DNA of 64,000 nt from Clostridia bacterium (GTDB lineage Bacteria; Bacillota; Clostridia; Oscillospirales; CAG-272), in assembly GCA_017451545.1 (NCBI GenBank), contig JAFTOB010000160.1:3751-67750 (forward strand), written 5' to 3'. The notes under the pieces are model-generated. The model did no database searches. It saw only the letters and a program-made list of their open reading frames with translations, and was not told where the DNA came from. Made by a program: the position numbers and the translations under genes. Below are positions 5,735-48,790 of this stretch, piece by piece; position 1 is the stretch's first letter; the number at the start of each line of letters is the position of its first letter.

Positions 5735-5882
5735 ATTGCGAAAGCAGATACAGCCTGCGGCTGATAAGATACACGCTTCGCGTGATGATATACGCCTTGC
5801 GGCGATGATATGCCATTGCTTTCGCAATGGATAAAAAATCGACAGGTCGAAACCTGTCGATTTTTGGTGCGGGTAAAAGGAC
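5735..5882. repeat. 148-bp direct repeat, copy 1
   Basis: Matches 6018-6165 with one mismatch that I can see (gataagat versus gatgagat). It contains four mini-hairpins, a terminator-like hairpin at 5838-5861 and 18 nt of tRNA-Leu 3' end at 5865-5882. Confidence 0.9.
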
Positions 5883-6111: not shown

Positions 6112-6165
6112 GGATAAAAAATCGACAGGTCGAAACCTGTCGATTTTTGGTGCGGGTAAAAGGAC
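6018..6165. repeat. 148-bp direct repeat, copy 2
   Basis: See copy 1. The offset between copies is 283 bp. Confidence 0.9.
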
Positions 6166-33338: not shown

Positions 33339-33413
33339 GCCTGCATAGTTAAATGGATATAATAACCCCCTCCTAAGGGGTAGTTATGGGTTCGATTCCC
33401 GTTGCGGGTGCCA
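33339..33413 (+). tRNA. tRNA-Arg(CCT), 75 nt
   Basis: GCCTGCA-TA-GTTA-AATGGATA-TAAT-A-ACCCC-CTCCTAA-GGGGT-AGTT-ATGGG-TTCGATT-CCCGT-TGCGGGT-G-CCA. The acceptor stem has two G.U pairs, including 1:72. An extended -10 TGATATAAT lies at 33318-33326. Confidence 0.75.
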
Positions 33414-33448
33414 AAAAGCCCAAGCACCGAAAGGTGCTTGGGCTTTTT
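33414..33448 (+). terminator. terminator after tRNA-Arg
   Basis: agcccaagcacc-gaaa-ggtgcttgggct followed by ttttt. Confidence 0.85.
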
Positions 33449-33451
33449 GAT

Positions 33452-33497
33452 ACTTGCACGGCAACACATCTTTGCGCGAAGCGCAAAATTGGGTTCG
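33452..33497. repeat. 46-nt direct repeat, copy A
   Basis: acttgcacggcaacacatctttgcgcgaagcgcaaaattgggttcg, repeated at 33591-33636. Confidence 0.9.
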
Positions 33498-33590
33498 CAT
33501 TTTCGACCAAGGACGGCGGTAGCTCGCTGACCGACGGCCGGGCGAAAATATTGGCCGAAGGCCATGCTTCCCGTTGCGGGCTTTTTTGCC

Positions 33591-33636
33591 ACTTGCACGG
33601 CAACACATCTTTGCGCGAAGCGCAAAATTGGGTTCG
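33591..33636. repeat. 46-nt direct repeat, copy B
   Basis: Identical to copy A. It is preceded at 33568-33580 by ttcccgttgcggg, which equals tRNA-Arg positions 33396-33408. Confidence 0.9.
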
Positions 33637-33647
33637 TAATAACAACG

Positions 33648-33676
33648 CAAGCTCCCCGACGCTGTCGGGGAGCTTG
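33648..33676. terminator. hairpin at the 3' end of the 16.7-kb minus-strand operon
   Basis: caagctccccgac-gct-gtcggggagcttg. Confidence 0.65.
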
Positions 33677-33680
33677 TGTT

Positions 33681-35468
33681 TTAAAAGATATCGTCTATTG
33701 CGTCGTCGGAGTCGACGGCGGTGAGGGTCACTTTAAGCGAATAGGTTCCGGCATTGGAAAGGCTTGAGGTATCAAGCTTTACCGTGTAGGCCACGTTCTC
33801 GTGGAGTGTGACCTCGCCCGTACCAACTTCGCTTCCGTCCGCTCTGTAGACGGTTGCGGGGGTGTCTCCCTCAAACTTATAATCGCCTGCTACGTCAACC
33901 GTCAGCGTGTAGCTAATATAACCGGGGGTGATATCGATACTTCTGACGATGATGCTGTTGTCGCCGACAGTCAGGACTCTCTCGATAGCTTTGACAGAGA
34001 TCTTGAGAGAATAGCTGCCCTGCGCGATGATGCCGCTGAGCTTGACGGTGTACGTGCCCGCCGCCAGATCGAGCTCGCCGCTGCCGAGATTCTTGCCTGC
34101 GGCATCGTAAACAGCCAAGTTAAAGTTTGCACCGTTGAAGACATACGTATCCGGAGTATCGACCTTGAAGATATATGAAATGGTTCCCGCAGTGACGTCA
34201 ATGCTTCTGACGGTGATCGTATTAATGCCAACGTTTAACGTTCTGTTCATCTTCTTTACCGAAATGCTCAGCGGATAGCTGCCGGCCTTGGTGATACCGC
34301 TGACTTTAACGGTATAAGTTCCCGCCTCAAGGTCGAGCTCGCCGTTTCCGAGGCTATTACCCAATGCGTCGTAAACAGCGACCGTAAGTCCTGTGCAGGA
34401 GAAGATATAGGTCTCGGCGGTGGTTGCCTTGAAGGTGTAAGACAGGGTGCCGGGAGTCACGTCAATGCTACGGACAAGGATGCTGTTGGAGCCGACCTTC
34501 AGGGTTCTGTCGATCTTCTTTACCGAAATGCTGAAGGGATATTCCCCTGCCTCGGTGATGCCGCTGACCTTGACGGTGTAAGTTCCCGCGGGAAGGTCGA
34601 GCTCGCCGCTGCCGAGGCTCTTGCCTGCGGCGTCATACACGAAAAGGTTCAGACCCGTGCAGGCAAAGACGTAGGTCTCCGCGGTGTCGGCCTTAAAGGT
34701 GTAGGTCAGAACGCCGGGTGCGACAACGTCGATCTCGCGGACCTTAACTGTATTAGAGCCGACCTTCAGGGTTCTGTCCATTTCCTTTACCGAAATATTC
34801 AGAGTATAGTTCCCTGCCTCGGTAACGTTTCCGAGGATAACGGTGTAAGTACCGGCAGGGAGGTCGAGCTCGCCGCTGCCGAGGGCGTTACCGTCGGTGT
34901 CATAGACAGCAACCGTCAGGCCGTCTGCGGTGAAAACATAGGTTTCCGCGGCGGTCGCGGTGAAGGCGCATTTCACGGTTCCGTTTTCGATGTCCTTGAC
35001 TTCAACGGCAAGAGTATTCTCGCCGACGGTGGCGGTGAAGACGGTCTGCTTTTCGGACGAAAGCCCGATCCAGATATCGTAAGTACCCGCGACAACTCCG
35101 TCGTTTATATCCAGCCTTACGGTATAAATACCGTTAGCAAGATCCATGACGTTGCGTCCCTCAAGGGAGCCATCCGAGTTGTAAACGCTTGCGTTGAAGT
35201 AATTGCTGAAGAAGGTATACTCGCCTGCGGCGGTTACGGTGAACTGGAATTCAACACTTCCGCCTGCGATATTTTCATCGGTCAGGGTAATATCATTGTA
35301 GCCGCCCTCAAGGCTCGGAAGCTCGGGAAGCTCCTCGGGAGGGGTATCCGAGACCTTTGTCAGCACGTACTCGGTTCCCGCGTGAATGAAAACGTCTGCG
35401 TTTCCGTTTTCATCGAGAACCAGAACGGCATCGGAGACATAAGTCGCGACTCCGTTTATATATATCAC
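33681..35468 (-). CDS. beta-sandwich-repeat surface protein segment (595 aa from a GTG); probably the 3' continuation of 35696-40255
   Basis: No signal peptide. 93 further in-frame sense codons lie upstream (35469-35747) with no ATG, GTG or TTG. It contains six modules of about 88 aa, homologous to modules of the upstream 1519-aa protein. Confidence 0.6.
   Translation of the reverse strand: MIYINGVATYVSDAVLVLDENGNADVFIHAGTEYVLTKVSDTPPEELPELPSLEGGYNDITLTDENIAGGSVEFQFTVTAAGEYTFFSNYFNASVYNSDGSLEGRNVMDLANGIYTVRLDINDGVVAGTYDIWIGLSSEKQTVFTATVGENTLAVEVKDIENGTVKCAFTATAAETYVFTADGLTVAVYDTDGNALGSGELDLPAGTYTVILGNVTEAGNYTLNISVKEMDRTLKVGSNTVKVREIDVVAPGVLTYTFKADTAETYVFACTGLNLFVYDAAGKSLGSGELDLPAGTYTVKVSGITEAGEYPFSISVKKIDRTLKVGSNSILVRSIDVTPGTLSYTFKATTAETYIFSCTGLTVAVYDALGNSLGNGELDLEAGTYTVKVSGITKAGSYPLSISVKKMNRTLNVGINTITVRSIDVTAGTISYIFKVDTPDTYVFNGANFNLAVYDAAGKNLGSGELDLAAGTYTVKLSGIIAQGSYSLKISVKAIERVLTVGDNSIIVRSIDITPGYISYTLTVDVAGDYKFEGDTPATVYRADGSEVGTGEVTLHENVAYTVKLDTSSLSNAGTYSLKVTLTAVDSDDAIDDIF
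33714..35303 (-). repeat. six tandem repeats of about 264 bp coding for modules of about 88 aa
   Basis: Examples: DRTLKVGSNTVKVREIDVVAPGVLTYTFKADTAETYVFACTGLNLFVYDAAGKSLGSGELDLPAGTYTVKVSGITEAGEYPFSISVKKI and DRTLKVGSNSILVRSIDVTPGTLSYTFKATTAETYIFSCTGLTVAVYDALGNSLGNGELDLEAGTYTVKVSGITKAGSYPLSISVKKM. The central three copies (33984-34778) are the most similar. Confidence 0.85.
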
Positions 35469-35659
35469 CTTTTCTTCGATCTTTTGACCGTCCCTATAAA
35501 AAACAACTTTCCCATCGACTATCTCGTACTCAAATTTGCCTATTCTGCCGTTAGAATCCTCGACAGTGAGCTTGTTCTCGTATATGATGACCTCTACGCT
35601 CGTATTAAAATAGCTATTGGTTCCGTTATATTTGCCGATGAGGGAAGGTGTCTGTGATG

Positions 35660-35693
35660 GGGGGAGAGGATTATCGGGGTTATCCTCTCCCCC
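35660..35693 (-). other. 12-bp perfect GC-rich hairpin starting 2 nt after the TAG of the 1519-aa ORF
   Basis: Minus strand reads gggggagaggat-aaccccgata-atcctctccccc, with no U tract after it. Confidence 0.85.
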
Positions 35694-35695
35694 AC

Positions 35696-38600
35696 CTATT
35701 CCCCCTCCTGATCCCCGTCTCCTTCGGTAACGGTATATTCGGTACCGTTATCGGTAAGGCCGACGAGCTTGCCGTCGGTGACGGTAAGGCCCATACCGGA
35801 CATTGCGTTGCCTTCATCGTCAACTATGGTTGCAACACCGTCGATAAAGGTATATGCGTAGGAGTTGGTCATGGGGTCGCCGGTCAGGTGGTGAATAAAA
35901 GAAATCGTAACAGTAGTATCGTCGACGACAACGTTCTTCGTATTTCCACCGGAATCGGTGGCAACGTACGTGCCGGTGATGTCGATATTGGGGAGCTCGG
36001 GCTCGTCGCCACCGACGGTAACGACCCAGCCGTCCTCGCCAACCTCAAACTTGACGGCGGTGATGACGGGGGCGTTTCCGGTTGCCTCCTCATGCTCCAT
36101 AGCGGTGAGGTTGAGGATCAACGTACCGTTATTGTTATCCGTAACTGTATAGGTGTAGTATGCCTTGCAAATAACGTTCCACTCTTCGTCCATCTCGATA
36201 TAGCACACGTAATAGACATTCGTGAGCATATCCCGGGAAACTTCGATCGTAATACCGTTATCAAGCATATTGTAGGAATCAAGGATCCTTCCCCACTCTG
36301 CCTCGGTGAGTGCGCCTGCCTCAAAGGTCAAGGTAGCCTCAACGGTGGCGGGAGTCTCGGAGTAGAAATATACGATATAGGTTTTTCCTGCAACAACGGG
36401 AGCGGTTACCGTGGTCTCGCCCTCGGACAGCTCTACCTCTGCAAGAGTGACAATAACGGTTCCGTTAACGGTGAGGGTCACGTGACCGGTCTCGGTTGCG
36501 GTGAACTCATAGTAGTAAGCGGACCAATCGGATGGGAGATTGGGCTTCAAGGTTGCGGGGAAGCTTTCGATCTTATCGGGATTATCGTAGGATCCTGCGG
36601 GAGCTGCAAACTCAACGGTAATGCTGTAATCACCTGCGGTTGCTGCACTTACGGTTACGGTATAGGTGGTATAGCCGTCAAGAAGAGCGCCGTTCTCAAC
36701 GGTATTTCCATCGGCGTCGGTGATAACAAAGGTCAGACCCTCGCCCTTGACGGTGTAGTATCCCCTGTCATAAGTGAAAAGGAATACAACGGTAGATCCG
36801 TCGACCTTAACGTCTATGCTTCCGTAATTATCAAGGATCACAGGAGCGCCCACGGTGAGGGTGTACTCGCCTGCGGTCTCTGCGGTAACGGTTATCTTGT
36901 ACTGAAGATAGGACTCGAGAGTGTACTCGCCGCCTGCGGGCTCGACAACGTTGCCTTCGCCGTCAGTGACAACGACGGTCAGGCCTGTACCGGTGAAGGT
37001 ATACTTGCCGTTATTGTAGGGGGTGTATACGCAATCAATACCCTCTGCGGGTACGGTAACGGTATTCTCACCATCCTCAAGCACAACGGGTCTTTCGGCA
37101 GAGACGTTGACGACGTAGTCGCCTGCGGTCTCAGCACCGATAACCACGGTGTAAGAGCCCATATATGCGGCTTCAAGGTCAACGGTAACAGCACCGAAGC
37201 CCTGAACCATAGGCATACCCCAAGTGTCATAGATCGCAATGGATGCACCGTTTGCGGTGAAGGTGTAATTTGCGTTCTCGTAAACGTTGAGGTAGGTGGT
37301 TGTACCGTTTACGGTATCGGAAACGGTAATAGTATTCTCCCCTTCCTCGAGGTAAATGTCCTCGGGGATCTCGGGATCGTCGGGATCGTCGGGCTGATCG
37401 GATACACCCATAATGACGTAGGTGACCGTCCAGCTTCCCTTTGTTGCCGCGCTGATATGGAACTTATAGATCTCCCCTGCAGTAAGCTCGACCGCAAAGG
37501 TTCCTCCGTTCGGATCGTTGTTGAAGTCAACGTAAGGCATTGAAGAAAATTCGGTTTCATATTTTACCGCATCCCAAGCACCGAGGCCTGCAGGCACGGT
37601 GAAAATATATTTGCCCGTCACGGTTGCGCTGATCTCAATGTAGTCATCCCAAGTGTACGTCTCGGTGATAGTTCCGCTCACAGAGCCGTTGCCAATCTCT
37701 ACAAGCTCCTCGTCCTCTTCTTCCTCGGTGACTCTGGTCATATTCTGAGCCATGGGCATACCCGAGCAGAGGAAGGTGGGCGTTACGCCGTCGAGAGCCA
37801 GGCTGATAATGATATTGGCTTCACTTCCGTCGGCCTTAAGAACGGTAATGCCGCCCATAAGAGTTCCTGTGTAAGTATAGCTTCCGCTGTATGCTCCGTT
37901 ATTATTGTCAACTATGGTGAGAGCACCGTTGTTAAACTCAAGAACGAACATACCCGACAGAACGTTCCACTTACCGTTGAGCGCGGTCTCGATCTCGGGC
38001 TCCTCATCCTCGCCGCCGCTCTGGAGCGTGAGGGTATACTTGTTGCCGTTGTAATAGAAGAGCGAGGGATTGCCGTCTGCGCCAAGCTCAAGCTTTCCAA
38101 AGTACTGAGCCATGGGACCGTTGGGATCAATGGGGCCGTTGGCGTTGCTGAGAGTCACGACACCGTTATTGACGGTGAAGGTGTATTCGAATGCATACGT
38201 GCTGAATTTGAAAAGGACCGTTCCTGCAGCGGGGTTATATTCCAGCGTTCCGCTGTTTGCAGGGGAGCTTGCTGCGTAAATGTACGAGCCGTCGTCCTCC
38301 TTCATATCAGCGGCGGTAAAGGTGATCTCTGCGGGCTCGGTTCCGTTGTATACAACGGTGAAGCCGTTTCCGTTTACAGAATAGTTATTCGCAGTGGTTC
38401 CGGAAACGTACACCTGTCCCTCGGGATCGGTGACGGTGACACCGTCGACAGTCCAGGTAATAGCGTAAGTGCAGATGCTTGCGGCACCGCTGGTTCCGAA
38501 TCCGCTGAGGTGCACTGTGTACTCCTTGCCGGGCTTGAGAGTCACGGTGTTCTCACCGGGCTTGAAGGTAAGCTCGTAGGATACGGCTTTATAATCGACG

Positions 38601-40255
38601 CGAACGTTTCCGTCCTTGTCGGCCTTGAGGAGGAAGGCGCACTGGGAGTTTGCCTCAACGTAGACCTCCTGAACGGTTGCCCAAGTCTTGCCGCCGTCCA
38701 CGCTGATCTGCACGCCGTTACCGACGGATATCTCGTAGAAGCTGCCGTTCTCGGAATTGTTGACAAAGTAGTTGGTGGCACCCGTGGTACTTGCATATCC
38801 CGCGTTGCCGCCGAGAGTCTCGTCGTAAAATATCTCCTTGCCGATATTTACGACCTTGAGAGTATCCTGCAGGTCGGTCTCAGCGGATGCGCTGGTTCTG
38901 ACGAAGAACAGGAAGGTCTCGTTTGCCTCAAGAGAGATCATATAGCTGTGACCCTGGGGCATCATAAAGGTGTCTTCCCAAGTGCAGATGTTGGAATTCT
39001 CGTTTGCAAATTCAAAGAGATAATCGCTGTCCGCAGGAGCGGTGAAGCTGTATGCGGTATATTTGTTCATATCCACTGTCATTGCCGTGTCGCCGAGATT
39101 TACGACTATTCCCTCAAGGGGTTTGATGCTCCAATCGAAGTCAAAGGCTCCGACCGTAATATCGAGCAGCTTGATCTGAAGAGTGATCTCCTGATTGTCC
39201 TCGGTTGCGGTGATGTAGTGGGAGTTCTTAAGTGCATCGTCGATGGTGATGTACTCGACTGAGGTGTAGAACTCGTAAAGGCCCTTGGTGGGCAGAGTAA
39301 ACTTAACGTTTACCACGGTGTTCGAGGGGAACAGATAGCTTCCCTCGGTCTCGGTAAGCTCAACGGTGTCCTCGATCTTTACTACGTAGTAGAAATATCT
39401 GACGGTGGGATCCTCATCGTTGATAAGATCCTCGCTCATGGGGAAGATACGGCTCTTGACGGTATACTCACCGGCCTTGTCAACCTCAAATACGTATTCC
39501 TTAGCAAAGCTTCCGCCCTCTACGTTGGGACCAAAGTTGATGTCCTCGTGATCCGACGAGAAAACAAGGTACTTTCCGGCAGAAGGCAGATCGAGGGTAA
39601 GCGTGCCGTAGTAGTACTTCCACGTGGCGTACACGCCGCCGATCTCGCCCTCCTCATCCTCGAGGATGACCTCGGCATAAGCAACACGGGTGGCCTCAAC
39701 GGTAACCTCGGTATCGGCAGAAATTTTCGACACGGTGAAGCTCCAGACAAACTCGATGCCATCCTCCTCGGGCTCGCCGTCCTGCTCTGCCCCGTTTGCG
39801 GTGAGAGCAAATGCGGGTGAACCTGTAACGGTAAAGGTAACGTCCTCTCCGGGCTTTGCGGTCAGAGTACCTTCAACGGTAAAGCCCTCGGGAGCGGTGA
39901 CTGTGACCTTGTAGGTCATTCTGTACTCGCAGGTATCGCAAAGTCCGTTGGCATCGTTATCCGCATGGGGTGCGAGGTCGGAGGTCTGCTCCTTGTGCTC
40001 GCAGCTCGCGGCGTGCCAGTGATTATTTTCATCCGTTGTCCAATTATTCTCAAAAGTATGGGTGTGATCGGGGTCGATGGGTGTTGTCGTTTCGTCCCCG
40101 CCGGGTATTGTGGTGGTGTCACCGCCCGGAGTGGTAGTGGTTGAATCGGGTGCCTTCGTTGTGGAGTCACCTTCTGCCGATCCGTCTCCGCCACAGCCTA
40201 CCATAAGCAGGGCTACGATAAGAAGCGCAACCAGCAAATAGAAACTTTTCTTCAT
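35696..40255 (-). CDS. giant lipoprotein (1519 aa) with Thr-rich linker, His/Cys motif and many beta-sandwich modules
   Basis: Lipobox LLMVGC followed by TTKAPDSTTTTPGGDTTT. Repeated modules such as GENTITV...ANYTFTANGASIAIYD...GSYTVVIGAETAGDYVVNVSAE resemble pre-peptidase C-terminal (PPC) domains. Confidence 0.8.
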   Translation of the reverse strand: MKKSFYLLVALLIVALLMVGCGGDGSAEGDSTTKAPDSTTTTPGGDTTTIPGGDETTTPIDPDHTHTFENNWTTDENNHWHAASCEHKEQTSDLAPHADNDANGLCDTCEYRMTYKVTVTAPEGFTVEGTLTAKPGEDVTFTVTGSPAFALTANGAEQDGEPEEDGIEFVWSFTVSKISADTEVTVEATRVAYAEVILEDEEGEIGGVYATWKYYYGTLTLDLPSAGKYLVFSSDHEDINFGPNVEGGSFAKEYVFEVDKAGEYTVKSRIFPMSEDLINDEDPTVRYFYYVVKIEDTVELTETEGSYLFPSNTVVNVKFTLPTKGLYEFYTSVEYITIDDALKNSHYITATEDNQEITLQIKLLDITVGAFDFDWSIKPLEGIVVNLGDTAMTVDMNKYTAYSFTAPADSDYLFEFANENSNICTWEDTFMMPQGHSYMISLEANETFLFFVRTSASAETDLQDTLKVVNIGKEIFYDETLGGNAGYASTTGATNYFVNNSENGSFYEISVGNGVQISVDGGKTWATVQEVYVEANSQCAFLLKADKDGNVRVDYKAVSYELTFKPGENTVTLKPGKEYTVHLSGFGTSGAASICTYAITWTVDGVTVTDPEGQVYVSGTTANNYSVNGNGFTVVYNGTEPAEITFTAADMKEDDGSYIYAASSPANSGTLEYNPAAGTVLFKFSTYAFEYTFTVNNGVVTLSNANGPIDPNGPMAQYFGKLELGADGNPSLFYYNGNKYTLTLQSGGEDEEPEIETALNGKWNVLSGMFVLEFNNGALTIVDNNNGAYSGSYTYTGTLMGGITVLKADGSEANIIISLALDGVTPTFLCSGMPMAQNMTRVTEEEEDEELVEIGNGSVSGTITETYTWDDYIEISATVTGKYIFTVPAGLGAWDAVKYETEFSSMPYVDFNNDPNGGTFAVELTAGEIYKFHISAATKGSWTVTYVIMGVSDQPDDPDDPEIPEDIYLEEGENTITVSDTVNGTTTYLNVYENANYTFTANGASIAIYDTWGMPMVQGFGAVTVDLEAAYMGSYTVVIGAETAGDYVVNVSAERPVVLEDGENTVTVPAEGIDCVYTPYNNGKYTFTGTGLTVVVTDGEGNVVEPAGGEYTLESYLQYKITVTAETAGEYTLTVGAPVILDNYGSIDVKVDGSTVVFLFTYDRGYYTVKGEGLTFVITDADGNTVENGALLDGYTTYTVTVSAATAGDYSITVEFAAPAGSYDNPDKIESFPATLKPNLPSDWSAYYYEFTATETGHVTLTVNGTVIVTLAEVELSEGETTVTAPVVAGKTYIVYFYSETPATVEATLTFEAGALTEAEWGRILDSYNMLDNGITIEVSRDMLTNVYYVCYIEMDEEWNVICKAYYTYTVTDNNNGTLILNLTAMEHEEATGNAPVITAVKFEVGEDGWVVTVGGDEPELPNIDITGTYVATDSGGNTKNVVVDDTTVTISFIHHLTGDPMTNSYAYTFIDGVATIVDDEGNAMSGMGLTVTDGKLVGLTDNGTEYTVTEGDGDQEGE

Positions 40256-40292: not shown

Positions 40293-42050
40293 TCATTCAG
40301 TGTAATATGCGCAGGCGAACAGCCACTGATCGTCCTGCATTGCGTCGACGTCGATAACGTCGTTCTCCTCGACCCAGCCCGCGCCGTCATTGAAATAGCG
40401 CTGTGCCTCGCTGAGTCTTTGCAAAAAGACGCGAAGCTCCTCGGTCAGAGGAAAATATCCGTCCCGATTGGCGAAATCGGCATAGCCGGGACCGCCGATA
40501 AGCTCCTTGCGGCAGGGCGTACAATCGCTGATACAGCCCTCGCAATCGGGTGGGCAGGCCAGACCGTATTTCCCGCCGCCGTGGCAGGGGCATTTATAGC
40601 TACAATAATACGGAGGCATATCTACGCTTCCGCTCCAGGTAGCAAGATCGTCGTAGCCCTCTAGGAAATGCTTGTAATTGTGGTCAAGGTATTCCCCGTT
40701 CTCCTCCACGCGGATGGTCAGGCTCTTATTGCCCGGATCCTCGATATGGGTCAGAGAAAGCTGCAGGAATCTGCAGGGAGTGGTAATGGCGGCGTAGACC
40801 GTGGGGCCGTAGCCGTCGGTTTCCGCGTATTTTTCCTCATCGTAGAGATGATAGAAGCCGTCCTCGGGGTTCAGCTTGAACATTGAGCCGTCAAATATGT
40901 TCTTTCCTCCCACGCGGATCTCGGGGTAGGTCAGCCTTCCCTCTTCGTTGTAAAGATTTTTCAGATACAGGCGTATATGATAGTATTCGTCTTCGCCCAT
41001 GACCTTGAAAAGTCTCTCGTTGGGGTTTGTGGGATCCTCGTTTTCGTAATTTTTCAGATTCTCGTAAGTTGTCCGAAGCGGGGGATCGTTCGGTGCCGCG
41101 TAGCGGGAAAGTGCGGCCGAGTAATCCTCCCAGCTCATTGCAAGCAGCTTATCGAGCTCTCGGTTTATTGTAGCATAAAGCTCGGTGGGGATCTCCATTG
41201 CCTTTTCGGTTCGCGGTCTGACGTACGAGCCGTTTCTCGAAATGGCAAAATCCACATTGACGGGAGAAAACTCCGTCGCTTTGGTCTCGACGTGGACGGC
41301 GAAGGTATAAACGTTTCCGATCATATCGGCGTCGACGTTGATCTCGTAACGGAAATTCTTCGTGTAGCCCTTGCTTGCGCCGCCGTCATCCAGCGTGCGG
41401 TCGAAGAACTTGCTTGCGAAGGTTCCGTTGTAAAGATCGGCCTTGGGATTGATCTCGCCTGCGGTGATATCCACCCAGGATTCGACCACATAGGTTCCCT
41501 CCTCCGAGGGTACGAACTGATAATACACTACCGTATTAGCCTTTTTGATATCGGCGCGGAAGACGCCGATGTCCTCAAGCTCAAAGCAACGGTAAAGCGA
41601 TTTGCCCGTTCCCTTCGTGGGCTCGGTAATATCGTAAAGATCAATGACCACGTTCCTCTCGTCGGCGGTGGCCACGTAGATATTGGGGTTATAGATCAGG
41701 CCGTCGGGCACCGAGGAGAGAGTTACGTCATAGTTTCCGTCAAGATCGCCGACGGTAGCTATTCCCTGCTCGTTGAACTCGGCGTTGTAGAAGCTGTATC
41801 CGTCTGTCCAATGGGCGAAGACCTTATCCTTAGGAATATATGGGTCGCCGTTATATCGGAGCGACACGGTGTAGGCGTTTTCGTCGGGCACGCTGTCACT
41901 CGGCGGGGTTGCCGTGGTGCTCTCATCGGGAGCGGTGGTACCGTTCGGCTGTTTTATCGCCTCTGTATACTCACCGCAGCCGATCATTGCGCAGACCAGA
42001 AGGAGCAAAACGGTGGAGACAAATATTTTTTTCATCTTTCGGTTTTTCAC
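40293..42050 (-). CDS. lipoprotein (585 aa) with PPC-like module and Cys-rich C-terminal segment
   Basis: Lipobox VCAMIGC. The Cys-rich segment is YYCSYKCPCHGGGKYGLACPPDCEGCISDCTPC. Confidence 0.7.
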   Translation of the reverse strand: MKNRKMKKIFVSTVLLLLVCAMIGCGEYTEAIKQPNGTTAPDESTTATPPSDSVPDENAYTVSLRYNGDPYIPKDKVFAHWTDGYSFYNAEFNEQGIATVGDLDGNYDVTLSSVPDGLIYNPNIYVATADERNVVIDLYDITEPTKGTGKSLYRCFELEDIGVFRADIKKANTVVYYQFVPSEEGTYVVESWVDITAGEINPKADLYNGTFASKFFDRTLDDGGASKGYTKNFRYEINVDADMIGNVYTFAVHVETKATEFSPVNVDFAISRNGSYVRPRTEKAMEIPTELYATINRELDKLLAMSWEDYSAALSRYAAPNDPPLRTTYENLKNYENEDPTNPNERLFKVMGEDEYYHIRLYLKNLYNEEGRLTYPEIRVGGKNIFDGSMFKLNPEDGFYHLYDEEKYAETDGYGPTVYAAITTPCRFLQLSLTHIEDPGNKSLTIRVEENGEYLDHNYKHFLEGYDDLATWSGSVDMPPYYCSYKCPCHGGGKYGLACPPDCEGCISDCTPCRKELIGGPGYADFANRDGYFPLTEELRVFLQRLSEAQRYFNDGAGWVEENDVIDVDAMQDDQWLFACAYYTE

Positions 42051-42065
42051 GCCGTTTTACCTCCT

Positions 42066-45000
42066 TTATGACGTTTTGGTTTTTACAAACAGGCTCTTTA
42101 TATCGACCCATTTGAGTTTTCTTATGATAATATCGATGACGTAGAGTGCTACGGCGATGATCAGAAGCGGGACCGTGTAGTTCACCTTATAGGTCGAGAT
42201 CTCCTTTTCGTCGTTCTCTATCTTGGGGACGCCGTTCTCGGTGATGGTACCGTTGCCTCTTATTGCCTGGTTGAGATCAGAGGCGCTGAAGGTTGCAAAG
42301 CTGTCATACTCGGGGGAGTAGGACACGTTGAAGTAGGTATCCGACACGTATTCGTGATCATCGTAAGAATAAGTGAAGGTTATCTTATATTTACCGAGAT
42401 CGGGAGTCGCAAATTCGTAGTAGTAACCCGTGGAGTTAAAGAGGAGCTGATCGGCAATAGTTTCGCCGTTCGGCAGAGTGATCTCCATATGCATCGTGGC
42501 GTAAGGATTGAGAACTGCGGGGATCACCTCGATGAAGGAGGACTCACCGTCATACTCAACGCTGACAGAATAAGGATCGTTGATCTTCTCCGACGGAGTG
42601 TTGACCTCAAGCACGTTCTCGAGGAAGTCCTGACCCGTGCTGTCCACCCAATCGCGGGCCCATTCGCCCGAGATCGAGCTTGTGAAGGTCGAAACCTTAC
42701 CGTTTCCGTAGCTCCAATAGACGTATATGGGGGGCTTGGCCACGCCCTCGCCCGTTCTGGTGTACTCGGTGGTGAGAACGGTGGTGGCGCTCGCCTTGGC
42801 GCTTGAATAAACGTAACCGTAAAGGTCGGGAAGGCGTTTGATGCCCTCAAGCACGTCGTCATGCTCCTTGCTGATATTGACGGGCGACTTTTCTTCAATG
42901 ACAGTTTCCTTGAGCTGATCCATCATATCTGCCGACATTTCATACTGTACCCATGCGTTTTCGTCATCGGTGCTCAACACGTATGTTCCGACGGCGGGCG
43001 AGACGAACCAATATTCTATTCCGCCCTTATCGATATCCTCTTTGGATACGGTTATTTTATTGTCGCCGTATGCCAGATAATTCTTCGTGGGGTTTGTGGG
43101 ATCGCCTGCCGAATCCACCTGCTCGTCACCGATATAGGTGATGCTAAGCTCGATCTCGTCGGCATCCCCGTTGAACGTGGAGATATAAAGCTTGAGGATC
43201 TTTCCCTTATAAAGCTCAAGATAAACACTCTCGCCGCCACGCAGACCTGCCATGGTGTTCATATCGGTGAGGTTGCCGTCCTCCTTGATCTCATAGAACT
43301 TTCCGTTACCGTACTTGGCTATGGATTTCATCATGGACAGTCCCTCGTCGGTATTATCCGCAGGGGGACAAGGGTAAATGGCCGAAGTGTTGATCCCCTC
43401 GGCGCTCATATCCTTGACGACGTCGATGGCGTTGGGGGTCTCCTCGCCAAAGGCGCGACCGTCGGAGATCAGATAGACCTCGCGGCTGTCGAAGGGCTGA
43501 TCCTTCATAAGCTCTGCGGCCTGGAAAAGTGCCGAGCCGAGGAAGGTTCCCTGAGTTGGGCGAATGGCGTTGATTCGATCCTCGATCTCCTGTCTGTAAT
43601 CCCCTACCCTTACGGGCTTGTAGACCACCTTGACGTCTCCGGAGAAGGAAATGACCGAGACGTAATCGTCTGCGTTCAGCGTGCCGAGGAACTCCACCGC
43701 CGCTTTTTTCAGAGTTATAAGTCTGGATGCCTGATCCATACTGAGCGAGCTGTCAAGCACTATGGCGTAAAGCTTCTCCTTCTGATCCGAGTTGCCGAAT
43801 TTTACGGGAAGCATATCCTCAAGCTGCTTCAGCACCTCGTCGGTCTTATTCTGGATCTTGAGATCTCCCACCGTTACAAGGCTCTTGCCGAAGAGCGAGA
43901 CCACCTTATCCACGTTACCGATGAATGCGGTGTAGTTATCAAGCTCGCGGACGTCCTGATTCGAGATAATGATCTCATCGTACTCGCAAAGCGCCTCGAC
44001 GGTTACGGGCAGCTTATCGAGCAGGCTTTCTTCATCGTATTTTCCCTCGGGCAGCTTGACCTTGGGATCGCTGATAAATGCATCGATCTTGGCGTTTGCG
44101 CCGTAGATTCTGTGTATCGCATCAAGATCCGAGGCCAGCGGTGTCACCAACAGAACGCTGATATCGCCCGAAACACTTTGAGTGAAGCTATAGCTGTTGT
44201 TGTGGGGAGACACGTCATCCTTCGAGCTGATCTTGATCTCGTAATCAAAATCGCCCTCGTCCCCCGTTTCGAGCTCCACGTTGACCACGTTGTAGCCACG
44301 CGAGAGCTGAACCGCCTGAGTGGACACGTTGACCGAATTTCGGTAGACCGAAAGGATAGTCTGCGCGTCGTAGGTGCTCTGAAGAAGCACGTTTGCCGTG
44401 GTTTCGTGGTTGAGGTAGGTGGATTTAGTGAAGTCCACGCCTGTTATCTGCACCTCAAGATCGTCTTCCTTGAGGTTGTTGTCCAGATAAATGGTATCAA
44501 TATAAATATTCTGTGCGCGGAGGTTTTCGATGGAGGCTATAAGCTCCTTCGTGTCCTCGCTGTTCGTCTGTTTTCCGTCGGTTATAAGAACGATCCTCTT
44601 TATAACGTTGTCCTTAAAAAGACCCGCAGCGTAATCGAGAGCGGGGGCGATATGAGTGGCTCCGCTGTCGACCTTTGCGTTCTTAACACTCTCAAGCTCC
44701 TCGCCCATTTCGGTAACGAGCTCATAATCCGCGCCGAAGCAGATGAGACCCACCTTTGAGTTCATGGGAAGATTTTCCTTCACCAGGGCATCTATATATT
44801 GATCAACCGTATCGAGATTCCGATTTGCGGAATAGGACACGTCGGCCACGATATAAACGTTGGTCTCGGTTATGACCGTGGTGACCACGGTTCCCGCCAG
44901 CGCGAAGACGATGGCAACGATTATGACGAAATGGAGTATAAAGGATGCGATGACATGGCCGTTTCTGTTATCCTTTCTTATAGCGATAAGGAAAGGGATA

Positions 45001-45068
45001 AGAACCGCTAAAACGAGGGGTATTGCGACGAGAAACAGATAGGGATTATCGAAGCTGATATTTTTCAT
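42066..45068 (-). CDS. membrane protein with BatA-like N-terminal double-TM and two VWA domains (1000 aa)
   Basis: The start is MKNISFDNPYLFLVAIPLVLAVLIPF. MIDAS-like DVSYS and DSSLS motifs are present, along with a C-terminal TM helix. Confidence 0.75.
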   Translation of the reverse strand: MKNISFDNPYLFLVAIPLVLAVLIPFLIAIRKDNRNGHVIASFILHFVIIVAIVFALAGTVVTTVITETNVYIVADVSYSANRNLDTVDQYIDALVKENLPMNSKVGLICFGADYELVTEMGEELESVKNAKVDSGATHIAPALDYAAGLFKDNVIKRIVLITDGKQTNSEDTKELIASIENLRAQNIYIDTIYLDNNLKEDDLEVQITGVDFTKSTYLNHETTANVLLQSTYDAQTILSVYRNSVNVSTQAVQLSRGYNVVNVELETGDEGDFDYEIKISSKDDVSPHNNSYSFTQSVSGDISVLLVTPLASDLDAIHRIYGANAKIDAFISDPKVKLPEGKYDEESLLDKLPVTVEALCEYDEIIISNQDVRELDNYTAFIGNVDKVVSLFGKSLVTVGDLKIQNKTDEVLKQLEDMLPVKFGNSDQKEKLYAIVLDSSLSMDQASRLITLKKAAVEFLGTLNADDYVSVISFSGDVKVVYKPVRVGDYRQEIEDRINAIRPTQGTFLGSALFQAAELMKDQPFDSREVYLISDGRAFGEETPNAIDVVKDMSAEGINTSAIYPCPPADNTDEGLSMMKSIAKYGNGKFYEIKEDGNLTDMNTMAGLRGGESVYLELYKGKILKLYISTFNGDADEIELSITYIGDEQVDSAGDPTNPTKNYLAYGDNKITVSKEDIDKGGIEYWFVSPAVGTYVLSTDDENAWVQYEMSADMMDQLKETVIEEKSPVNISKEHDDVLEGIKRLPDLYGYVYSSAKASATTVLTTEYTRTGEGVAKPPIYVYWSYGNGKVSTFTSSISGEWARDWVDSTGQDFLENVLEVNTPSEKINDPYSVSVEYDGESSFIEVIPAVLNPYATMHMEITLPNGETIADQLLFNSTGYYYEFATPDLGKYKITFTYSYDDHEYVSDTYFNVSYSPEYDSFATFSASDLNQAIRGNGTITENGVPKIENDEKEISTYKVNYTVPLLIIAVALYVIDIIIRKLKWVDIKSLFVKTKTS

Positions 45069-46896
45069 AGCAATACACCGCCCAATCTGCCGCAAAAATC
45101 ACCGCCAAACAGATAAATACGATGAGCAGACTGTCATACGTACCGTCAAATCCGCCGGGCTCGGCCGTTCCCGTGAGGCTGAAATCTTCAGCAGAGGCCT
45201 GCGGCAGGCGCTCGCTCTCGGGAAGCTCTGAATAAATTTTGAAAACTCTCGGGTTATCCGACACCGTAACGGTAACGGTGTAGGTTCCCACCTCGGTAAG
45301 CGTGTAATCGCTGATTGCGCCCGCAGTATCAAGATAGGATATCTTGCCGCCGGGGCTGTCAACTCTGATGCTGTCGCAGTTTGCGATAACGTTCACGCTC
45401 AGCTCGTCTCCGCAGTAGTAGGAGGACTTTTCAATGACCTCGGGGAAAGAATATTCCATAAAGTTCTTAACAAGGGCAATGAAATCCACCAGCACGGGGA
45501 GGTTTGAATCCTGCAGGCTGAATGCGAATACCACTTCTCTGTTTCCGTAGGTATTGGTGCCCGTAAAGACCACGGGGTTACCCTGATAGGTGAACAGAGG
45601 GGTGAACTTTCGGTAAAGACCGCACTTCACGAACCGTGTGATATATATATCCTTACCGCCCACTCCCGCAGTCAGCTTTCTGACCACCGAGGAACTGTCC
45701 TTCGACATGGTGACGGTGCTCGGATCCTCAAGAGTTACGTCTCCCTGCACGCTGAAGCCCGAATTGTCCACGCTCGCAGAGGGATTGATGATCCATACGG
45801 CGCCATCCCGTGGCAGCTCCGAAGGATCGTAGGAATCGAAAATATAAAGTCCGTAGCCGCTCTGACCCGTATATTCATCGGGTAGCATTACGTCTATGTT
45901 GGAGTATCCCGTGGCCGACAGCGCGCTTCTTATAAAGAAGGGGTTGGGGCTGACCGCTAAGATCTTGTAGGAATCGTCGCCGCTCTTTACGTTGTACACG
46001 ATGACCTCGTTATCAAGAGCGAGAGAATCGTCGGATTCCAATACGACCTTTATGGACTTATAGCTCTTGCACTGGCAAGCAAGCTCAAAGGGAGTGCTCT
46101 CCCCTGCCTTTACCTCGACGGTTTCGACGGCGTTCGCCTCGGCGGCGTCATCCACGTAGAGCTTGACCGTAAAGGTGGCATCCGCGAGGTAGGAGATCGC
46201 ATTGCCGCTGACATTCAGCCTTCCCGCCGAAAGCACGGGGATGATACTGTTGATGGCTGCGTTCTTCTCCTTGCCCGCCACGTTGATGACCTCAACGTTG
46301 CCGTGTGCGGCATATGCGGTATCGGTGACAAGGTAGGTCAGGATCGATGGGCTTTCGTTGAAATACTTCTGCGCCTCGCTGATCGCCTCTGCCGTATCGG
46401 TCTCGCAATGGGAGGGCTCTATCTCATCCAGCAGAACGAGCACCTTTTCCTTGTCGGTCTCGCCCTCGAAGACCACTCTCGTGCCGTCGCCGTAATAAAC
46501 GAGCGAGAATCTGCTTCCGTCCACGGCGTCGCCGACAAGCTCGGATATTTTCTCCTTGCCCATCTCAAATCGGGTCTTCCCTTCCTCGGAGACCATATTC
46601 ATACTGCCCGTGCCGTCAAGCACGAAGCAATATTCATTGGCCGCGTTGGGGATGGTGACGATGGGATGAGCTATGGCCAGCGAGATAAAGAGAACTGCCA
46701 GAAGCTGAAGGATGAGGCTGATAAGTCCCGTCATTCGGCTGATGGGGTTCTTTCTTTTGAGAAATTTTTCGCTGAGCGTCCACAGATAGGTGGATGCCAC
46801 AAGCTGCTCCGTATATTTGCTTTTTATTATGTATATGATTATCAGGATCGGAATTCCGATAAGTCCCAACAATCCGAGTGGGTATAAGAAGGTCAC
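45046..46896 (-). CDS. BatA-like double-TM / VWA-like membrane protein (616 aa)
   Basis: N-terminus MTFLYPLGLLGLIGIPILIIIYIIKSK...STYLWTL. Also FVLDGTGSM and a C-terminal TM helix. Confidence 0.7.
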   Translation of the reverse strand: MTFLYPLGLLGLIGIPILIIIYIIKSKYTEQLVASTYLWTLSEKFLKRKNPISRMTGLISLILQLLAVLFISLAIAHPIVTIPNAANEYCFVLDGTGSMNMVSEEGKTRFEMGKEKISELVGDAVDGSRFSLVYYGDGTRVVFEGETDKEKVLVLLDEIEPSHCETDTAEAISEAQKYFNESPSILTYLVTDTAYAAHGNVEVINVAGKEKNAAINSIIPVLSAGRLNVSGNAISYLADATFTVKLYVDDAAEANAVETVEVKAGESTPFELACQCKSYKSIKVVLESDDSLALDNEVIVYNVKSGDDSYKILAVSPNPFFIRSALSATGYSNIDVMLPDEYTGQSGYGLYIFDSYDPSELPRDGAVWIINPSASVDNSGFSVQGDVTLEDPSTVTMSKDSSSVVRKLTAGVGGKDIYITRFVKCGLYRKFTPLFTYQGNPVVFTGTNTYGNREVVFAFSLQDSNLPVLVDFIALVKNFMEYSFPEVIEKSSYYCGDELSVNVIANCDSIRVDSPGGKISYLDTAGAISDYTLTEVGTYTVTVTVSDNPRVFKIYSELPESERLPQASAEDFSLTGTAEPGGFDGTYDSLLIVFICLAVIFAADWAVYCYEKYQLR

Positions 46897-47777
46897 TTCA
46901 ATACCTCCATATCGGTCAGTTTTCCGAAGAAGATCTCGGCCATGGAGTCCTCCGCGTTTGTCAGCATATAAGCTGCGCCGCGGGCTTCACAATAATTTTT
47001 GATCCTGTCAACGGTGTACTGCAGCGCATCCTTATAGGCGCGCACGATCTCGCGATCGATCTTTTTTCTGTATGACTTTCGCGTATTTTCCGAATCGAAA
47101 AGGTGCATCTTTCCGCGAAGCTGGGGGTTCATCTCTTCCCTCGACAGCACCTGAATGCAAAGAATATCCCTGCGCTTATCGGCCAGGTGGTCTATGGCGT
47201 CCTCGTAGTTGTTGTCGGTGAGGAAGTCGGAGATTATGACCGACATACCGTCGCCGTGACCCACGCGGGACTGAAGAATGGCGTCCGAAATAAAGCTGTC
47301 ACCGTCAAACTCGATCTCGTTGAGCTTGCCGATGGAGCCGATATACGCCTCTTTGCCCACTATCCCGTTCAGCACGTCGATGACCTGACTGTCGCGGATG
47401 ATAAAGATGGAAACCTTTTCCATTTCACAGATCGAGATATACGCCAACGTAGCGGCCAAGCGCAAGGCTTGCTCTGCCTTCTGTCCTCTGCCGTAATCCA
47501 TGGAGCGGCTGGCGTCGATATAGATCCTCGTGTGCATCTGACGCTCGTCGAGATAAAGCTTTTCGTAAAGCTTATCGAAGCGCGCGTATGCGTTCCAGTC
47601 GATCTTCGTCACGTCATCGCCCGGCATATAGTCGCGGTAATCCACAAATTCGCAGGACGAGCCGTAGGTCTTACTCTTACGGTTGCCCCCGAACATACCG
47701 GCTATATTGTTTTTGAGCAGGGTCTGCAGAGTTTCGATCTGCTGCAAAAGCTCCTCATTTACCGTAAATTTTGCCAT
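46893..47777 (-). CDS. DUF58 domain protein
   Basis: GSSCEFVDYRDYMPGDDVTKIDWNAYAR is the DUF58 signature. It overlaps the next gene by 4 nt. Confidence 0.85.
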   Translation of the reverse strand: MAKFTVNEELLQQIETLQTLLKNNIAGMFGGNRKSKTYGSSCEFVDYRDYMPGDDVTKIDWNAYARFDKLYEKLYLDERQMHTRIYIDASRSMDYGRGQKAEQALRLAATLAYISICEMEKVSIFIIRDSQVIDVLNGIVGKEAYIGSIGKLNEIEFDGDSFISDAILQSRVGHGDGMSVIISDFLTDNNYEDAIDHLADKRRDILCIQVLSREEMNPQLRGKMHLFDSENTRKSYRKKIDREIVRAYKDALQYTVDRIKNYCEARGAAYMLTNAEDSMAEIFFGKLTDMEVLK

Positions 47778-47783
47778 ATCAAC

Positions 47784-48773
47784 TTACTTTGAGAGCTTTT
47801 TGTTTTCTCTTACGAGCATACCGATAACGTCATCGGCGGTCAATCTCTCGTTAACTGCGGTGTAGTTTACCTTGATTCTGTGTCTGAGAACGGGGCAAGC
47901 CAGCGCGTCGATGTCGGCGTAGGAGACGTTGTAGTTGCCGTTTACAAGGGCGCGAACCTTGGCGCAGGTGATGAGGGCCTGAGCCGCACGGGGGGATGCG
48001 CCGTACTTTATGTACTTCTTTGCGGTGACAGAGGTATCGTCAAGCTCGGGGTGAGTGTTGGAGACGAGATTGATGGCGTAGTTCAGTACGTCACCAATTA
48101 CCGGGACGGTGGCCGCAAGGGCTCTCATTTCCATGATCTCCTCGCCGTTGACCGAAGCCTCGGCGGTCTCCTCCATGGTGATCTGGGTCATTCTGACGAT
48201 ATCTGCAAGCTCGGCCTTGTTCGGGAACTTCATAAGAAGCTTGAAGACGAAGCGGTCCATCTGAGCCTCGGGCAGCGGGTAGGTTCCGTCCTGCTCCACG
48301 GGGTTCTCGGTTGCGAGCACGAAGAAGGGCTCGTCGATCTTATATGTCTCGCCTGCCACGGTAACCTTGTGCTCCTGCATGACCTCAAGCATTGCGGACT
48401 GGGTCTTGGGGGTTGCACGGTTGATCTCGTCGGCAAGGACGAGGTTGGCGAAGATGGGGCCCTTGCGGAAGCTGGTGTTGAGCTTTCCGTTATCGTCCTT
48501 TTCGACGATATTGGTACCCGTAACGTCGGAAGGCATAAGGTCGGGGGTGAACTGAATACGCGAGAAGGGGAGCTGGAGGGTCTTGGCCAGCGAACGGACC
48601 AGACGGGTCTTACCTACTCCGGGAACACCCTCAAGCAGAACGTTTCCGCCTGCGATGATCGCGATAATAACGTTATCGATTATTTCCTGCTGACCGACAA
48701 CGTCGCGTGCCAGCTGCTCCTTGATTGCGGCGATCTTCTGGCTGAATGCCGCTACTCTTTCCATGTTTTCCAT
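47784..48773 (-). CDS. MoxR family AAA+ ATPase
   Basis: VVGQQEIIDNVIIAIIAGGNVLLEGVPGVGKT, RIQFTPDLMPSDVTGT and LADEINRATPKTQSAMLEVMQE. Confidence 0.9.
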   Translation of the reverse strand: MENMERVAAFSQKIAAIKEQLARDVVGQQEIIDNVIIAIIAGGNVLLEGVPGVGKTRLVRSLAKTLQLPFSRIQFTPDLMPSDVTGTNIVEKDDNGKLNTSFRKGPIFANLVLADEINRATPKTQSAMLEVMQEHKVTVAGETYKIDEPFFVLATENPVEQDGTYPLPEAQMDRFVFKLLMKFPNKAELADIVRMTQITMEETAEASVNGEEIMEMRALAATVPVIGDVLNYAINLVSNTHPELDDTSVTAKKYIKYGASPRAAQALITCAKVRALVNGNYNVSYADIDALACPVLRHRIKVNYTAVNERLTADDVIGMLVRENKKLSK

Positions 48774-48790
48774 AATATATCCTTCCTTTA

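Follow-up and report, generated by a model that had tools for sequence, protein, structure and literature searches.

The window, by which we mean the whole 64-kb stretch of DNA analysed, comes from an uncultured gut Clostridia bacterium, and all features described below lie on its minus strand. At the center of this analysis is a large lipoprotein ORF of 1519 amino acids and a TAG stop (35696..40255; IJX46_09750; P0001, 100% identity), the coding part of which runs from 40255 to 35699. The ORF opens with a lipoprotein signal peptide (MKKSFYLLVALLIVALLMVGC, lipobox LLMVGC) and also carries a His/Cys-rich motif (HTHTF..W..NHWH..C) and variable beta domains. Among its repeated units are three weak 88-aa modules and a domain present three times that we call module J, the third copy (35732..35965) being the last domain before the stop. 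The gene lies directly downstream of MoxR, DUF58, BatA/VWA and VWA genes and a lipoprotein gene of about 530 aa, and is the last member of this conserved MoxR, DUF58, BatA/VWA, VWA, lipoprotein gene cluster; the neighbors gave Pfam matches to MoxR AAA+ (PF07726), DUF58, BatA_N+VWA and VWA. Gene order matches in the related loci inspected (among 60 retrieved), the N-terminal motif is common to their large lipoprotein ORFs, and the lipobox and N-terminal HxH..W..HW Cys/His repeats place the gene in the lipoprotein family of MoxR-VWA clusters. The MoxR-DUF58-BatA_N+VWA-VWA arrangement, conserved in the 60 related Clostridia loci retrieved, resembles that of Bat/MoxR-VWA (BatA-like) operons. Unlike in those operons, a large hypervariable lipoprotein (His/Cys repeats, module J, 88-aa Ig-like modules) is attached here; it has no curated family, and a Foldseek comparison of the module J model with the PDB gave no significant match.

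The sequence continues as protein in the -1 frame, which holds 688 codons and a stop (33681..35747, stop at 33683-33681; P0005). The first ATG, GTG or TTG of this frame is codon 94, the GTG at 35468, and only the 595 aa that follow from it (35468..33681) are annotated by NCBI, as IJX46_09745. Re-reading of the sequence confirmed what the first-pass annotation had reported of this junction, namely an upstream ORF that ends in cag gag ggg gaa TAG with its stop at 35698-35696, a G5 run at 35705-35701, and a -1 frame that is open from 35747 downward with 93 start-less codons ahead of the GTG. The downstream frame contains a fourth copy of module J (35436..35624), within which the annotated GTG start (35468-35466) falls, and six tandem 88-aa Ig-like modules (33726..35312), recognized by their 264-nt repeat period (Tandem Repeats Finder) and by weak Pfam matches to Big_6, Big_3 and MG2. 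The 88-aa modules do occur on both sides of the junction, as had been noted, with six downstream (E 1e-14 to 1e-49) and three weaker ones upstream at aa 969-1214; neither a signal peptide nor a lipobox was found in the downstream frame, again in line with the earlier description. Directly after the downstream stop stands an intrinsic terminator with a 13-bp stem and a T-rich tail (33648..33676), where the transcription unit really ends.

The net -1 change is confined to 49 nt (35699..35747), an interval bounded by the last upstream stop of the -1 frame and by the 0-frame TAG. This TAG (35696..35698) overlaps an ATA codon of the downstream frame (35699-35697), and an AGGAGG sits 4 nt before that in-frame ATA. 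The most parsimonious site for a 1-nt deletion is the G5 run (35701..35705), formally a G_GGG tetramer of the Z_ZZN type (motif definition in PMC4066793 and PMC5009743); the G4 run at 35717-35714 is another candidate, as is a tandem near-repeat of 12 nt, AGGAGGGGGAAT / AGGTGGGGGAGA (35686..35709, 9/12 identical), read from the sequence. The near-repeat reaches from the SD-like AGGAGG (35709-35704) across the G run and the stop into the beginning of the hairpin's 5' arm, and is low-complexity, slippage-prone linker DNA. One added G fuses the two ORFs into 2191 aa, close to the figure of about 2190 aa given previously, and the trans-frame peptide expected across the junction is ...GDQEG-GIGGGEDNPDNP... 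(also given as ...TEGDGDQEGGIGGGEDNPDNPLPPSQTPSLIGK). The junction heptamer, G_GGG_GAA, is indeed not a canonical X_XXY_YYZ site. No sign of a recent duplication or recombination boundary was seen in the DNA repeats around the junction.

Immediately beyond the new stop, in the linker coding for GGGEDNPDNPLPP, lies a G+C-rich hairpin (35660..35693) whose 12-bp stem is perfect, whose loop measures 10 nt and which lacks a U tract. Its arms, GGGGGAGAGGAT and ATCCTCTCCCCC, occupy 35693-35682 and 35671-35660, and our reading of it agrees with that of the first-pass annotation. The stem is separated from the heptamer by 5 nt and from the run by 7 nt. Both distances fall among the spacers of 5-9 nt reviewed for 3' structures that stimulate frameshifting (PMC5009743). 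When the codons of the peptide EGGIGGGEDNPDNPLPPSQTPS were resampled synonymously with local codon usage, a perfect stem of at least 12 bp arose in 10 of 200,000 trials, and the hairpin is therefore more than chance would give (P about 5e-5 given the peptide and codon usage). Furthermore, perfect stems in 22 kb of the window's other coding DNA reach 9 bp at most, the 131-nt hairpin region folds with z = -3.65, and the hairpin is unique in the 64-kb window. It was not present in any related locus examined. Rfam returned nothing relevant at the junction beyond one sub-threshold chance miRNA match. A search of metagenome contigs for the hairpin pattern gave 10 matching stretches only, all on different contigs, which are too few to suggest a repeated or mobile element. 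A palindromic mobile element was also rejected because the hairpin is unique and the in-frame TAG would survive its excision.

Several results demonstrate that both parts once formed a single gene. A module J profile drawn from relatives only matched on both sides of the junction, at 35965-35732 in frame 0 (E 5.6e-15, full-length) and at 35624-35436 in frame -1 (E 3.1e-5), bearing out the homology across the junction that had been proposed. AlphaFold2 modeled the sequence downstream of the junction as a single ten-strand domain (residues 8-105, pLDDT 81.9), in which the Val encoded by the GTG is residue 66, with five full strands upstream of it and a sixth that spans it; according to this model the annotated GTG start cuts a beta domain in two. 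The linker motif (E)IGGG(D/E)(E/D)P is found in frame inside the distant homologues P0014 and P0028, and in relatives the 88-aa modules sit within the big lipoprotein ORF. The first-pass annotation had proposed asking whether orthologues are fused or split. The closest homologue, L073, is not split at this place: it is 41-45% identical and colinear (module J3, linker, J4, 88-aa modules), and its equivalent linker, ...FENEDEPEDPEDPELPPVDSSSMVGKYNG..., is read in a single frame. In related MAGs, 36 complete family genes were found beside the VWA gene; not one of them is split, and their downstream neighbors have their own lipobox or are unrelated. The locus thus has the form of a frameshift-split gene, in which consecutive parts of what is a single gene in relatives are separated and the downstream ORF lacks its own start and targeting signal. 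The domain profile, structure model, linker motif, L073 and family architecture all uphold the earlier proposal of a single gene split by a -1 change; the programmed or transcriptional slippage that had been offered as one of its causes is not supported, as detailed below.

We then considered whether the lesion is real and whether the gene is decaying. The NCBI MAG contig, the ENA scaffold and the Logan contig all carry G5 with 0 mismatches, and the Logan contig passes the site without a break; the three assemblies apparently derive from one sample and probably have the same reads underneath. Because the three agree on G5, an assembly error, which had been listed among the options, is unlikely, although the reads that they probably share limit the weight of this agreement. 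The lesion is thus likely to exist, and the homologues show that it is not conserved. The window's own copy has no lesion beyond the frame change, and all 688 downstream codons are open, so that either the lesion is very young or the frame is still used. In L074, a second assembly of the same species whose short contig ends before the junction, there is a 1-nt deletion in a GGG run (corresponding to 34186-34184 of the window), which could itself be an assembly error. Across 743 coding nt of the downstream part, L074 differs at three positions, two of them non-synonymous and one synonymous, compared to 1 mismatch in 1201 nt next door, although these numbers are small. In L073, single-nucleotide changes have turned two conserved positions of J3 and J4, a Tyr and a Gly, into stop codons. 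The changes in L074 and the stops in L073 may be signs of relaxed constraint. The TGA of L073 aligns with Gly, as in code 25; an alternative genetic code was rejected for the L073 stops, because this Gly-rich protein has only a single TGA and a single TAG among its 1371 codons. A conserved recoding signal was not found: the L073 linker is without RNA structure (z = -0.19), and the hairpin is missing in related loci.

We consider it probable that the junction reflects an ordinary, recent frameshift that truncates the gene, the 3' third of which has started to decay, and not programmed recoding. The ancestral state would have been a single surface lipoprotein gene of about 2190 aa, in which a G-rich linker of low complexity, set between two beta domains, underwent a genuine net -1 change. 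The simplest event would be the loss of one G from a G6 run to give G5; changes of 3n-1 or 3n+1 nt within 35747-35699 would serve as well. Translation would now stop one codon past the run and yield the 1519-aa lipoprotein with its signal peptide and the N-terminal two thirds, and the 3' third, with its one module J and its six Ig-like modules of 88 aa, would no longer be translated by design and would have begun to decay. Any full-length protein would come from low-level unprogrammed -1 slippage only. Which mutation took place, how recent it is and that function was lost are points that we infer. Of the two kinds of indel put forward earlier, a recent inactivating one is best supported, and a phase-variable one is unlikely with a run of only 5 G. 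This reading matters mostly for annotation: IJX46_09750 and IJX46_09745 would be two pieces of one frameshifted gene, the GTG-started 595-aa "protein" would not be a real product, and large variable surface lipoproteins attached to MoxR-VWA clusters of gut Clostridia would be repeatedly lost or truncated.

Like other frameshift-split genes and young pseudogenes of bacterial genomes and MAGs, the locus has adjacent same-strand ORFs in different frames that both match one gene in relatives, a downstream ORF without a start codon, SD-start pair or signal peptide, a lesion in a short homopolymer, and more lesions in a second assembly (L074) and in the closest homologue (L073). It differs from them in that the 688 downstream codons are fully open and an unusually strong hairpin follows right after the new stop. 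The hairpin speaks against the truncating-frameshift reading, which has to take it for a coincidence or, at the most, for a trigger of replication slippage. In quasipalindrome or hairpin template-switch mutagenesis (PMC7202029) a frameshift likewise adjoins an inverted repeat able to form a hairpin in replication, but here the frame change (35747-35699) lies upstream of the perfect stem and not inside it. Because the change must lie 5' of the stem, a classical arm-perfecting template switch alone cannot explain the shift and was rejected as its sole cause. A further parallel is the "savior" indel of herpesvirus thymidine kinase (PMC5009743), where an indel within a run of G shortens the product, some of which could be brought back to full length by low-level slippage in that run; the run there is 7-8 G versus 5 here, and no selective agent or measured frameshifting is known for our locus.

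Programmed or compensatory -1 ribosomal frameshifting, which would produce a short 1519-aa and a long isoform of about 2190 aa, we regard as unlikely. In this scheme the 12-bp hairpin would stall the ribosome while GGG occupies the P site and GAA the A site; tRNA-Gly would slip back on G_GGG, and a fraction of the ribosomes would read on in the -1 frame. The non-random, stable hairpin (z = -3.65), its spacing from the heptamer and the run inside the 5-9 nt range (PMC5009743), the agreement of G_GGG with the minimal Z_ZZN definition (PMC5009743, PMC4066793), and a -1 frame intact over 688 codons with an overlap window of 49 nt only are all consistent with it. Unprogrammed suppression of 1-bp deletions also has a precedent, reaching 1-10% in E. 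coli test cases (PMC10861913). However, the heptamer is not X_XXY_YYZ, and re-pairing of tRNA-Glu on GGA would give a central mismatch. Tests in E. coli did not class the G_GG.G tetramer as shift-prone, even when a pseudoknot was present, and ascribed its signal to SD-like initiation at a -1 frame AUA (PMC4066793). Moreover, neither the frame change, the shift site nor the stimulator is conserved in homologues, L073 included, none of the 36 complete family genes is split, and the second frameshift in L074 falls inside the supposed long-isoform region. Known bacterial -1 cassettes (dnaX, IS3/IS911-type transposases, phage tail chaperone G/GT) share with the locus a shift-capable run, a stem-loop 5-7 nt downstream, a nearby SD-like sequence and a short overlap window. 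They differ in that here there is no X_XXY_YYZ and the run consists of G, which does poorly when tested in E. coli. In addition, the SD-like element of the locus directly adjoins the site, where the cassettes have theirs about 10 nt upstream, homologues do not conserve the site, and the gene belongs to neither a mobile element nor a phage. If recoding were true, it would be a rare case of -1 recoding in a chromosomal, non-mobile-element bacterial surface-protein gene with an unconventional G-based shift site. Transcriptional slippage, which calls for a long A/T run (about 7-9 nt or more) or a run with a hairpin of the nascent RNA ahead of it, is not supported: the run is G5 and the hairpin lies on its wrong side, 3' and not 5', and the nascent-RNA hairpin mechanism, as cited in PMC5009743 (Penno et al. 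2015), needs a hairpin 5' of the run.

Somewhat more doubtful is a sequencing, assembly or consensus artefact, in which the true sequence would be an intact G6 gene or a G5/G6 mixture from which G5 was picked. The source is a metagenome-assembled genome, the lesion is in a homopolymer adjoining a strong hairpin, the downstream frame is perfectly intact, and the other 1-nt G-run deletion in L074 may point to a technical G-run problem in such assemblies. Yet the three assemblies, apparently made independently, are identical across the site with the Logan contig unbroken, no other gene in the 64-kb window is broken, and consensus indels in 5-base runs are rare in short-read data.

It is decidedly improbable, in our view, that the J3/J4 boundary is a regulated translational interruption, with a short lipoprotein made mostly and a minor long isoform carrying the six Ig-like modules, the latter arising through hairpin-stimulated -1 slippage on G_GGG here and through stop-codon read-through in L073. 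The strongly non-random hairpin and the occurrence of all three lesions in two lineages within about 160 aa are in keeping with this joint reading. Phase variation, in which slipped-strand mispairing at the G run would toggle the C-terminal third, is very improbable. The product is a surface protein, the lesion falls in a G run inside a G-rich tandem near-repeat, truncating lesions recur in the same region of L073, and L074 has its extra G-run deletion. However, useful switching rates at contingency loci usually need tracts of about 7-8 nt or more, so that five G are far under the usual length; the L073 lesions are nonsense substitutions and not tract-length changes, and the G5 is identical in the three assemblies, with no length polymorphism among them.

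Finally, two genes by design, with the downstream part started at the ATA (35699-35697) or at the annotated GTG at 35468, is hardly credible: a perfect AGGAGG does stand ahead of the ATA, a comparable construct was proposed to initiate at a -1 frame AUA through its SD (PMC4066793), in NCBI's annotation the GTG ORF is a protein of its own and module J is the C-terminal domain in 14 of its 41 occurrences in relatives, but extracellular-type Ig-like modules would lack a signal peptide, the GTG start would halve a domain, the SD-to-start distance is smaller than the window's other genes show, ATA starts translation very poorly, and L073 is continuous across the site.

The homologues used above came from searches of differing reach. 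Searching with the junction protein found no relative in genome contigs and nothing in metagenome contigs. The neighboring VWA protein retrieved the 60 loci from genome contigs, at family level only (at most 53% identity) and with no direct junction orthologue among them. Word-indexed protein searches returned the window's own two proteins and distant homologues only, and the informative fragments P0011 and P0010 were found by exhaustive HMMER search.

The split reported by the first-pass annotation was reproduced base for base on the minus strand. The upstream ORF (1519 aa, 40255..35699) ends GAT CAG GAG GGG GAA TAG, with its stop at 35698-35696 and a G5 run at 35705-35701, and the -1 frame, which at the junction reads GGG GGA ATA GGT GGG GGA GAG GAT AAC CCC..., is open for 688 codons from 35747 to a stop at 33683-33681. 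The first ATG, GTG or TTG of this downstream frame is the GTG at 35468, codon 94, so its first 93 codons indeed hold no start; among the remaining real genes of the 64-kb window, none begins with a long start-less leader. Adding one G in silico fused the ORFs, as had been predicted, into a 2191-aa protein with the junction ...TEGDGDQEGGIGGGEDNPDNPLPPSQTPSLIGKYNG... P0001, [quoted passage not shown], matches the upstream protein at 100% identity, and the 595 aa begun by the GTG are annotated separately as IJX46_09745 (P0005).

The two ORFs are parts of one real gene. A profile of module J, the beta domain flanking the junction, was built from relatives only (41 domains: 14 C-terminal, 27 internal) and matched the window in frame 0 at 35965-35732 (E 5.6e-15) and in the -1 frame at 35624-35436 (E 3.1e-5), with the annotated GTG inside the second match. 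AlphaFold2, given a small alignment, confidently (pLDDT 81.9) modelled this fourth, -1 frame copy (J4) as one all-beta domain whose ten strands occupy residues 8-105; because the GTG-encoded Val is residue 66, the annotated start would halve the domain. The 88-aa modules noted earlier on both sides comprise six downstream copies, to which the upstream ORF adds three weaker relatives, and in related loci such modules sit within the large lipoprotein ORF. The linker motif IGGGEDNP has an in-frame counterpart, EIGGGDEPE, in the distant homologues P0014 and P0028.

The closest homologue emerged when the downstream frame served as query in an exhaustive HMMER search: P0011, a 132-aa fragment (52% identical), is encoded on L073, a 4.1-kb contig whose study and sample differ from the window's. 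In frame 3, L073 aligns colinearly with fused-protein residues 256-966 and 1346-1964 (41-45% identity), shares the identical stretch KVSDTPPEELP, and reads the junction equivalent (...GVEFSAFENEDEPEDPEDPELPPVDSSSMVGKYNG...) in a single frame without a stop, so that this comparison of fused and split forms supports the single-gene reading. L073 has two in-frame stops, each a single-nucleotide change at a conserved position, namely a TAG where the YTY motif of J3, the last upstream copy of module J, has its conserved Tyr (L073:2649-2651), and a TGA for a conserved Gly in J4 (L073:3075-3077); apart from these its frame is intact and conserved over 1371 codons. These stops and the window frameshift make three lesions within ~160 aligned residues.

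The split gene closes a cluster of MoxR AAA+, DUF58, BatA_N/VWA, VWA and a 585-aa protein. A scan of species-representative genomes, queried with the VWA protein, yielded 60 related loci, all in Clostridia MAGs, and those inspected show the same order followed by a lipoprotein of ~530 aa and a large lipoprotein of 552-1919 aa. By motif scan, 36 large-lipoprotein genes were complete within their contigs, and none of them was split. Candidate downstream frames, in the relatives checked, proved to be unrelated genes or antisense shadows; a further gene after the large lipoprotein, where present, carries its own lipobox. The cluster (40293-50254), conserved in these 60 loci of gut Clostridia MAGs (L003-L062), is made up of a membrane protein of ~480 aa, MoxR AAA+, DUF58, BatA_N-VWA, a VWA protein of ~900-1000 aa and the ~530-aa lipoprotein; the large lipoprotein closing it is hypervariable, and the ~350-aa lipoprotein that often comes next in relatives is missing in the window. 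Near its N-terminus (aa 62-110, ~40060-39920) the upstream ORF has one copy of a His/Cys-rich ~50-aa repeat, H-T-H-T-[FY]..W....NHW[HY]...C.H.......H.D.D.NG.CD.C.Y, present in up to ~10 tandem copies in the homologues P0002, P0004 and P0014. This uncharacterised repeat matched no Pfam family and looks like a putative metal-binding module.

We consider it probable that this real single gene carries a recent truncating frameshift, a phenomenon that is itself ordinary. Any net -1 change must lie within 35747-35699, and since frame-0 homology to module J runs up to ...GTEYTVTEG, the lesion is confined to the linker. Of the candidate sites the G5 run is the simplest, but a plausible Gly-rich linker would also result from a change in the G4 run at 35717-35714. 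The region also contains a 12-nt tandem near-repeat (AGGAGGGGGAAT / AGGTGGGGGAGA), and the window lineage has about seven more linker residues than L073, which places a 3n-1 insertion among the possible events. A classical quasipalindrome template switch (PMC7202029) cannot account for the shift, whose position has to be 5' of the perfect stem described below. The upstream ORF contains another slippage-prone linker, acidic and of the PDDPDDP type, which is encoded by a 9-nt tandem repeat (GGGATCGTC, 3.3 copies, 37365-37393) and keeps its frame.

The first-pass annotation had likened a hairpin after the stop to a -1 frameshift stimulator. The inverted repeat, GGGGGAGAGGAT-N10-ATCCTCTCCCCC at 35693-35660 on the minus strand, is indeed perfect over 12 bp and lacks a U tract, and its stem begins 5 nt past the formal heptamer G_GGG_GAA, inside the 5-9 nt spacer range reviewed for such stimulators (PMC5009743). 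The stem is far from random: folding of the 131-nt region around it gave z = -3.65, resampling of synonymous codons for the same peptide produced perfect stems of 12 bp or more in 5e-5 of trials, and across 22 kb of other coding DNA in the window perfect stems reach 9 bp at most. The geometry fits, but other evidence speaks against recoding. The heptamer, as had been conceded, is not X_XXY_YYZ, and a systematic E. coli study judged the G_GG.G tetramer not shift-prone even with a pseudoknot (PMC4066793). That study attributed the G_GG.G signal to SD-like initiation at a -1 frame AUA, an arrangement blamed for a spurious "-1 frame" signal in its reporter constructs and resembling 35697-35709 in the window, where a perfect AGGAGG (35709-35704) is followed after 4 nt by the downstream-frame ATA (35699-35697) overlapping the TAG stop (ATAG). 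Neither L073 nor the wider family conserves a recoding site, and the hairpin, too, lacks conservation, since the L073 linker does not fold into significant RNA structure (z = -0.19). Hairpin-assisted -1 frameshifting is thus unlikely, and the improbable hairpin immediately 3' of the new stop is the sole unexplained element of the case. Unprogrammed suppression of 1-bp deletions reaches the percent level in E. coli (PMC10861913), which would make some leaky full-length product plausible without any programme. Elsewhere, two identical 14-bp perfect hairpins (AAAAATCGACAGGT / ACCTGTCGATTTTT, 5834-5865 and 6117-6148, 283 nt apart) resemble a terminator-like element that has been duplicated.

An artefact at read level, or a mixture of strains, is quite unlikely. 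The locus is present in three assemblies: the NCBI MAG contig, an ENA scaffold from sample SAMN15829954, and, for run SRR12529366, a Logan contig that continues unbroken across the site to 467 nt beyond the stop. The two that were compared match the window exactly, also in the G5 run. Sample names indicate that all three most likely share one read set; a consensus or assembler error is unlikely, though the reads themselves may be heterogeneous. Phase variation is very improbable, a five-G tract being short for it, and two genes by design is scarcely credible. Transcriptional slippage, also raised earlier, depends on long A/T runs or on a hairpin located 5' of the run (PMC5009743), and the site offers neither.

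Returning to a recent truncation, P0010 pointed to the 2-kb contig L074, which belongs to another assembly of the window's species (ENA ERZ27256817, contig k141_135828). Against the coding stretch 34423-33681, L074 shows one synonymous change, two non-synonymous changes (A-to-S and T-to-P, near the deletion) and a 1-nt deletion (GG at L074:237-238 versus GGG at 34186-34184) that puts the downstream ORF out of frame once more; in the adjoining 1201 nt (33497-32297) there is a single mismatch. Such a pattern is what a 3' part no longer translated would show, from few changes on a contig that stops short of the junction. Between tRNA-Arg(CCT) (33339-33413) and the lipoprotein-operon terminator, the window carries a 54-nt direct repeat (33444-33497 and 33583-33636, 96% identical, 139-nt spacing) of which L074 has one copy, indicating a 139-nt indel polymorphism beside the tRNA gene.
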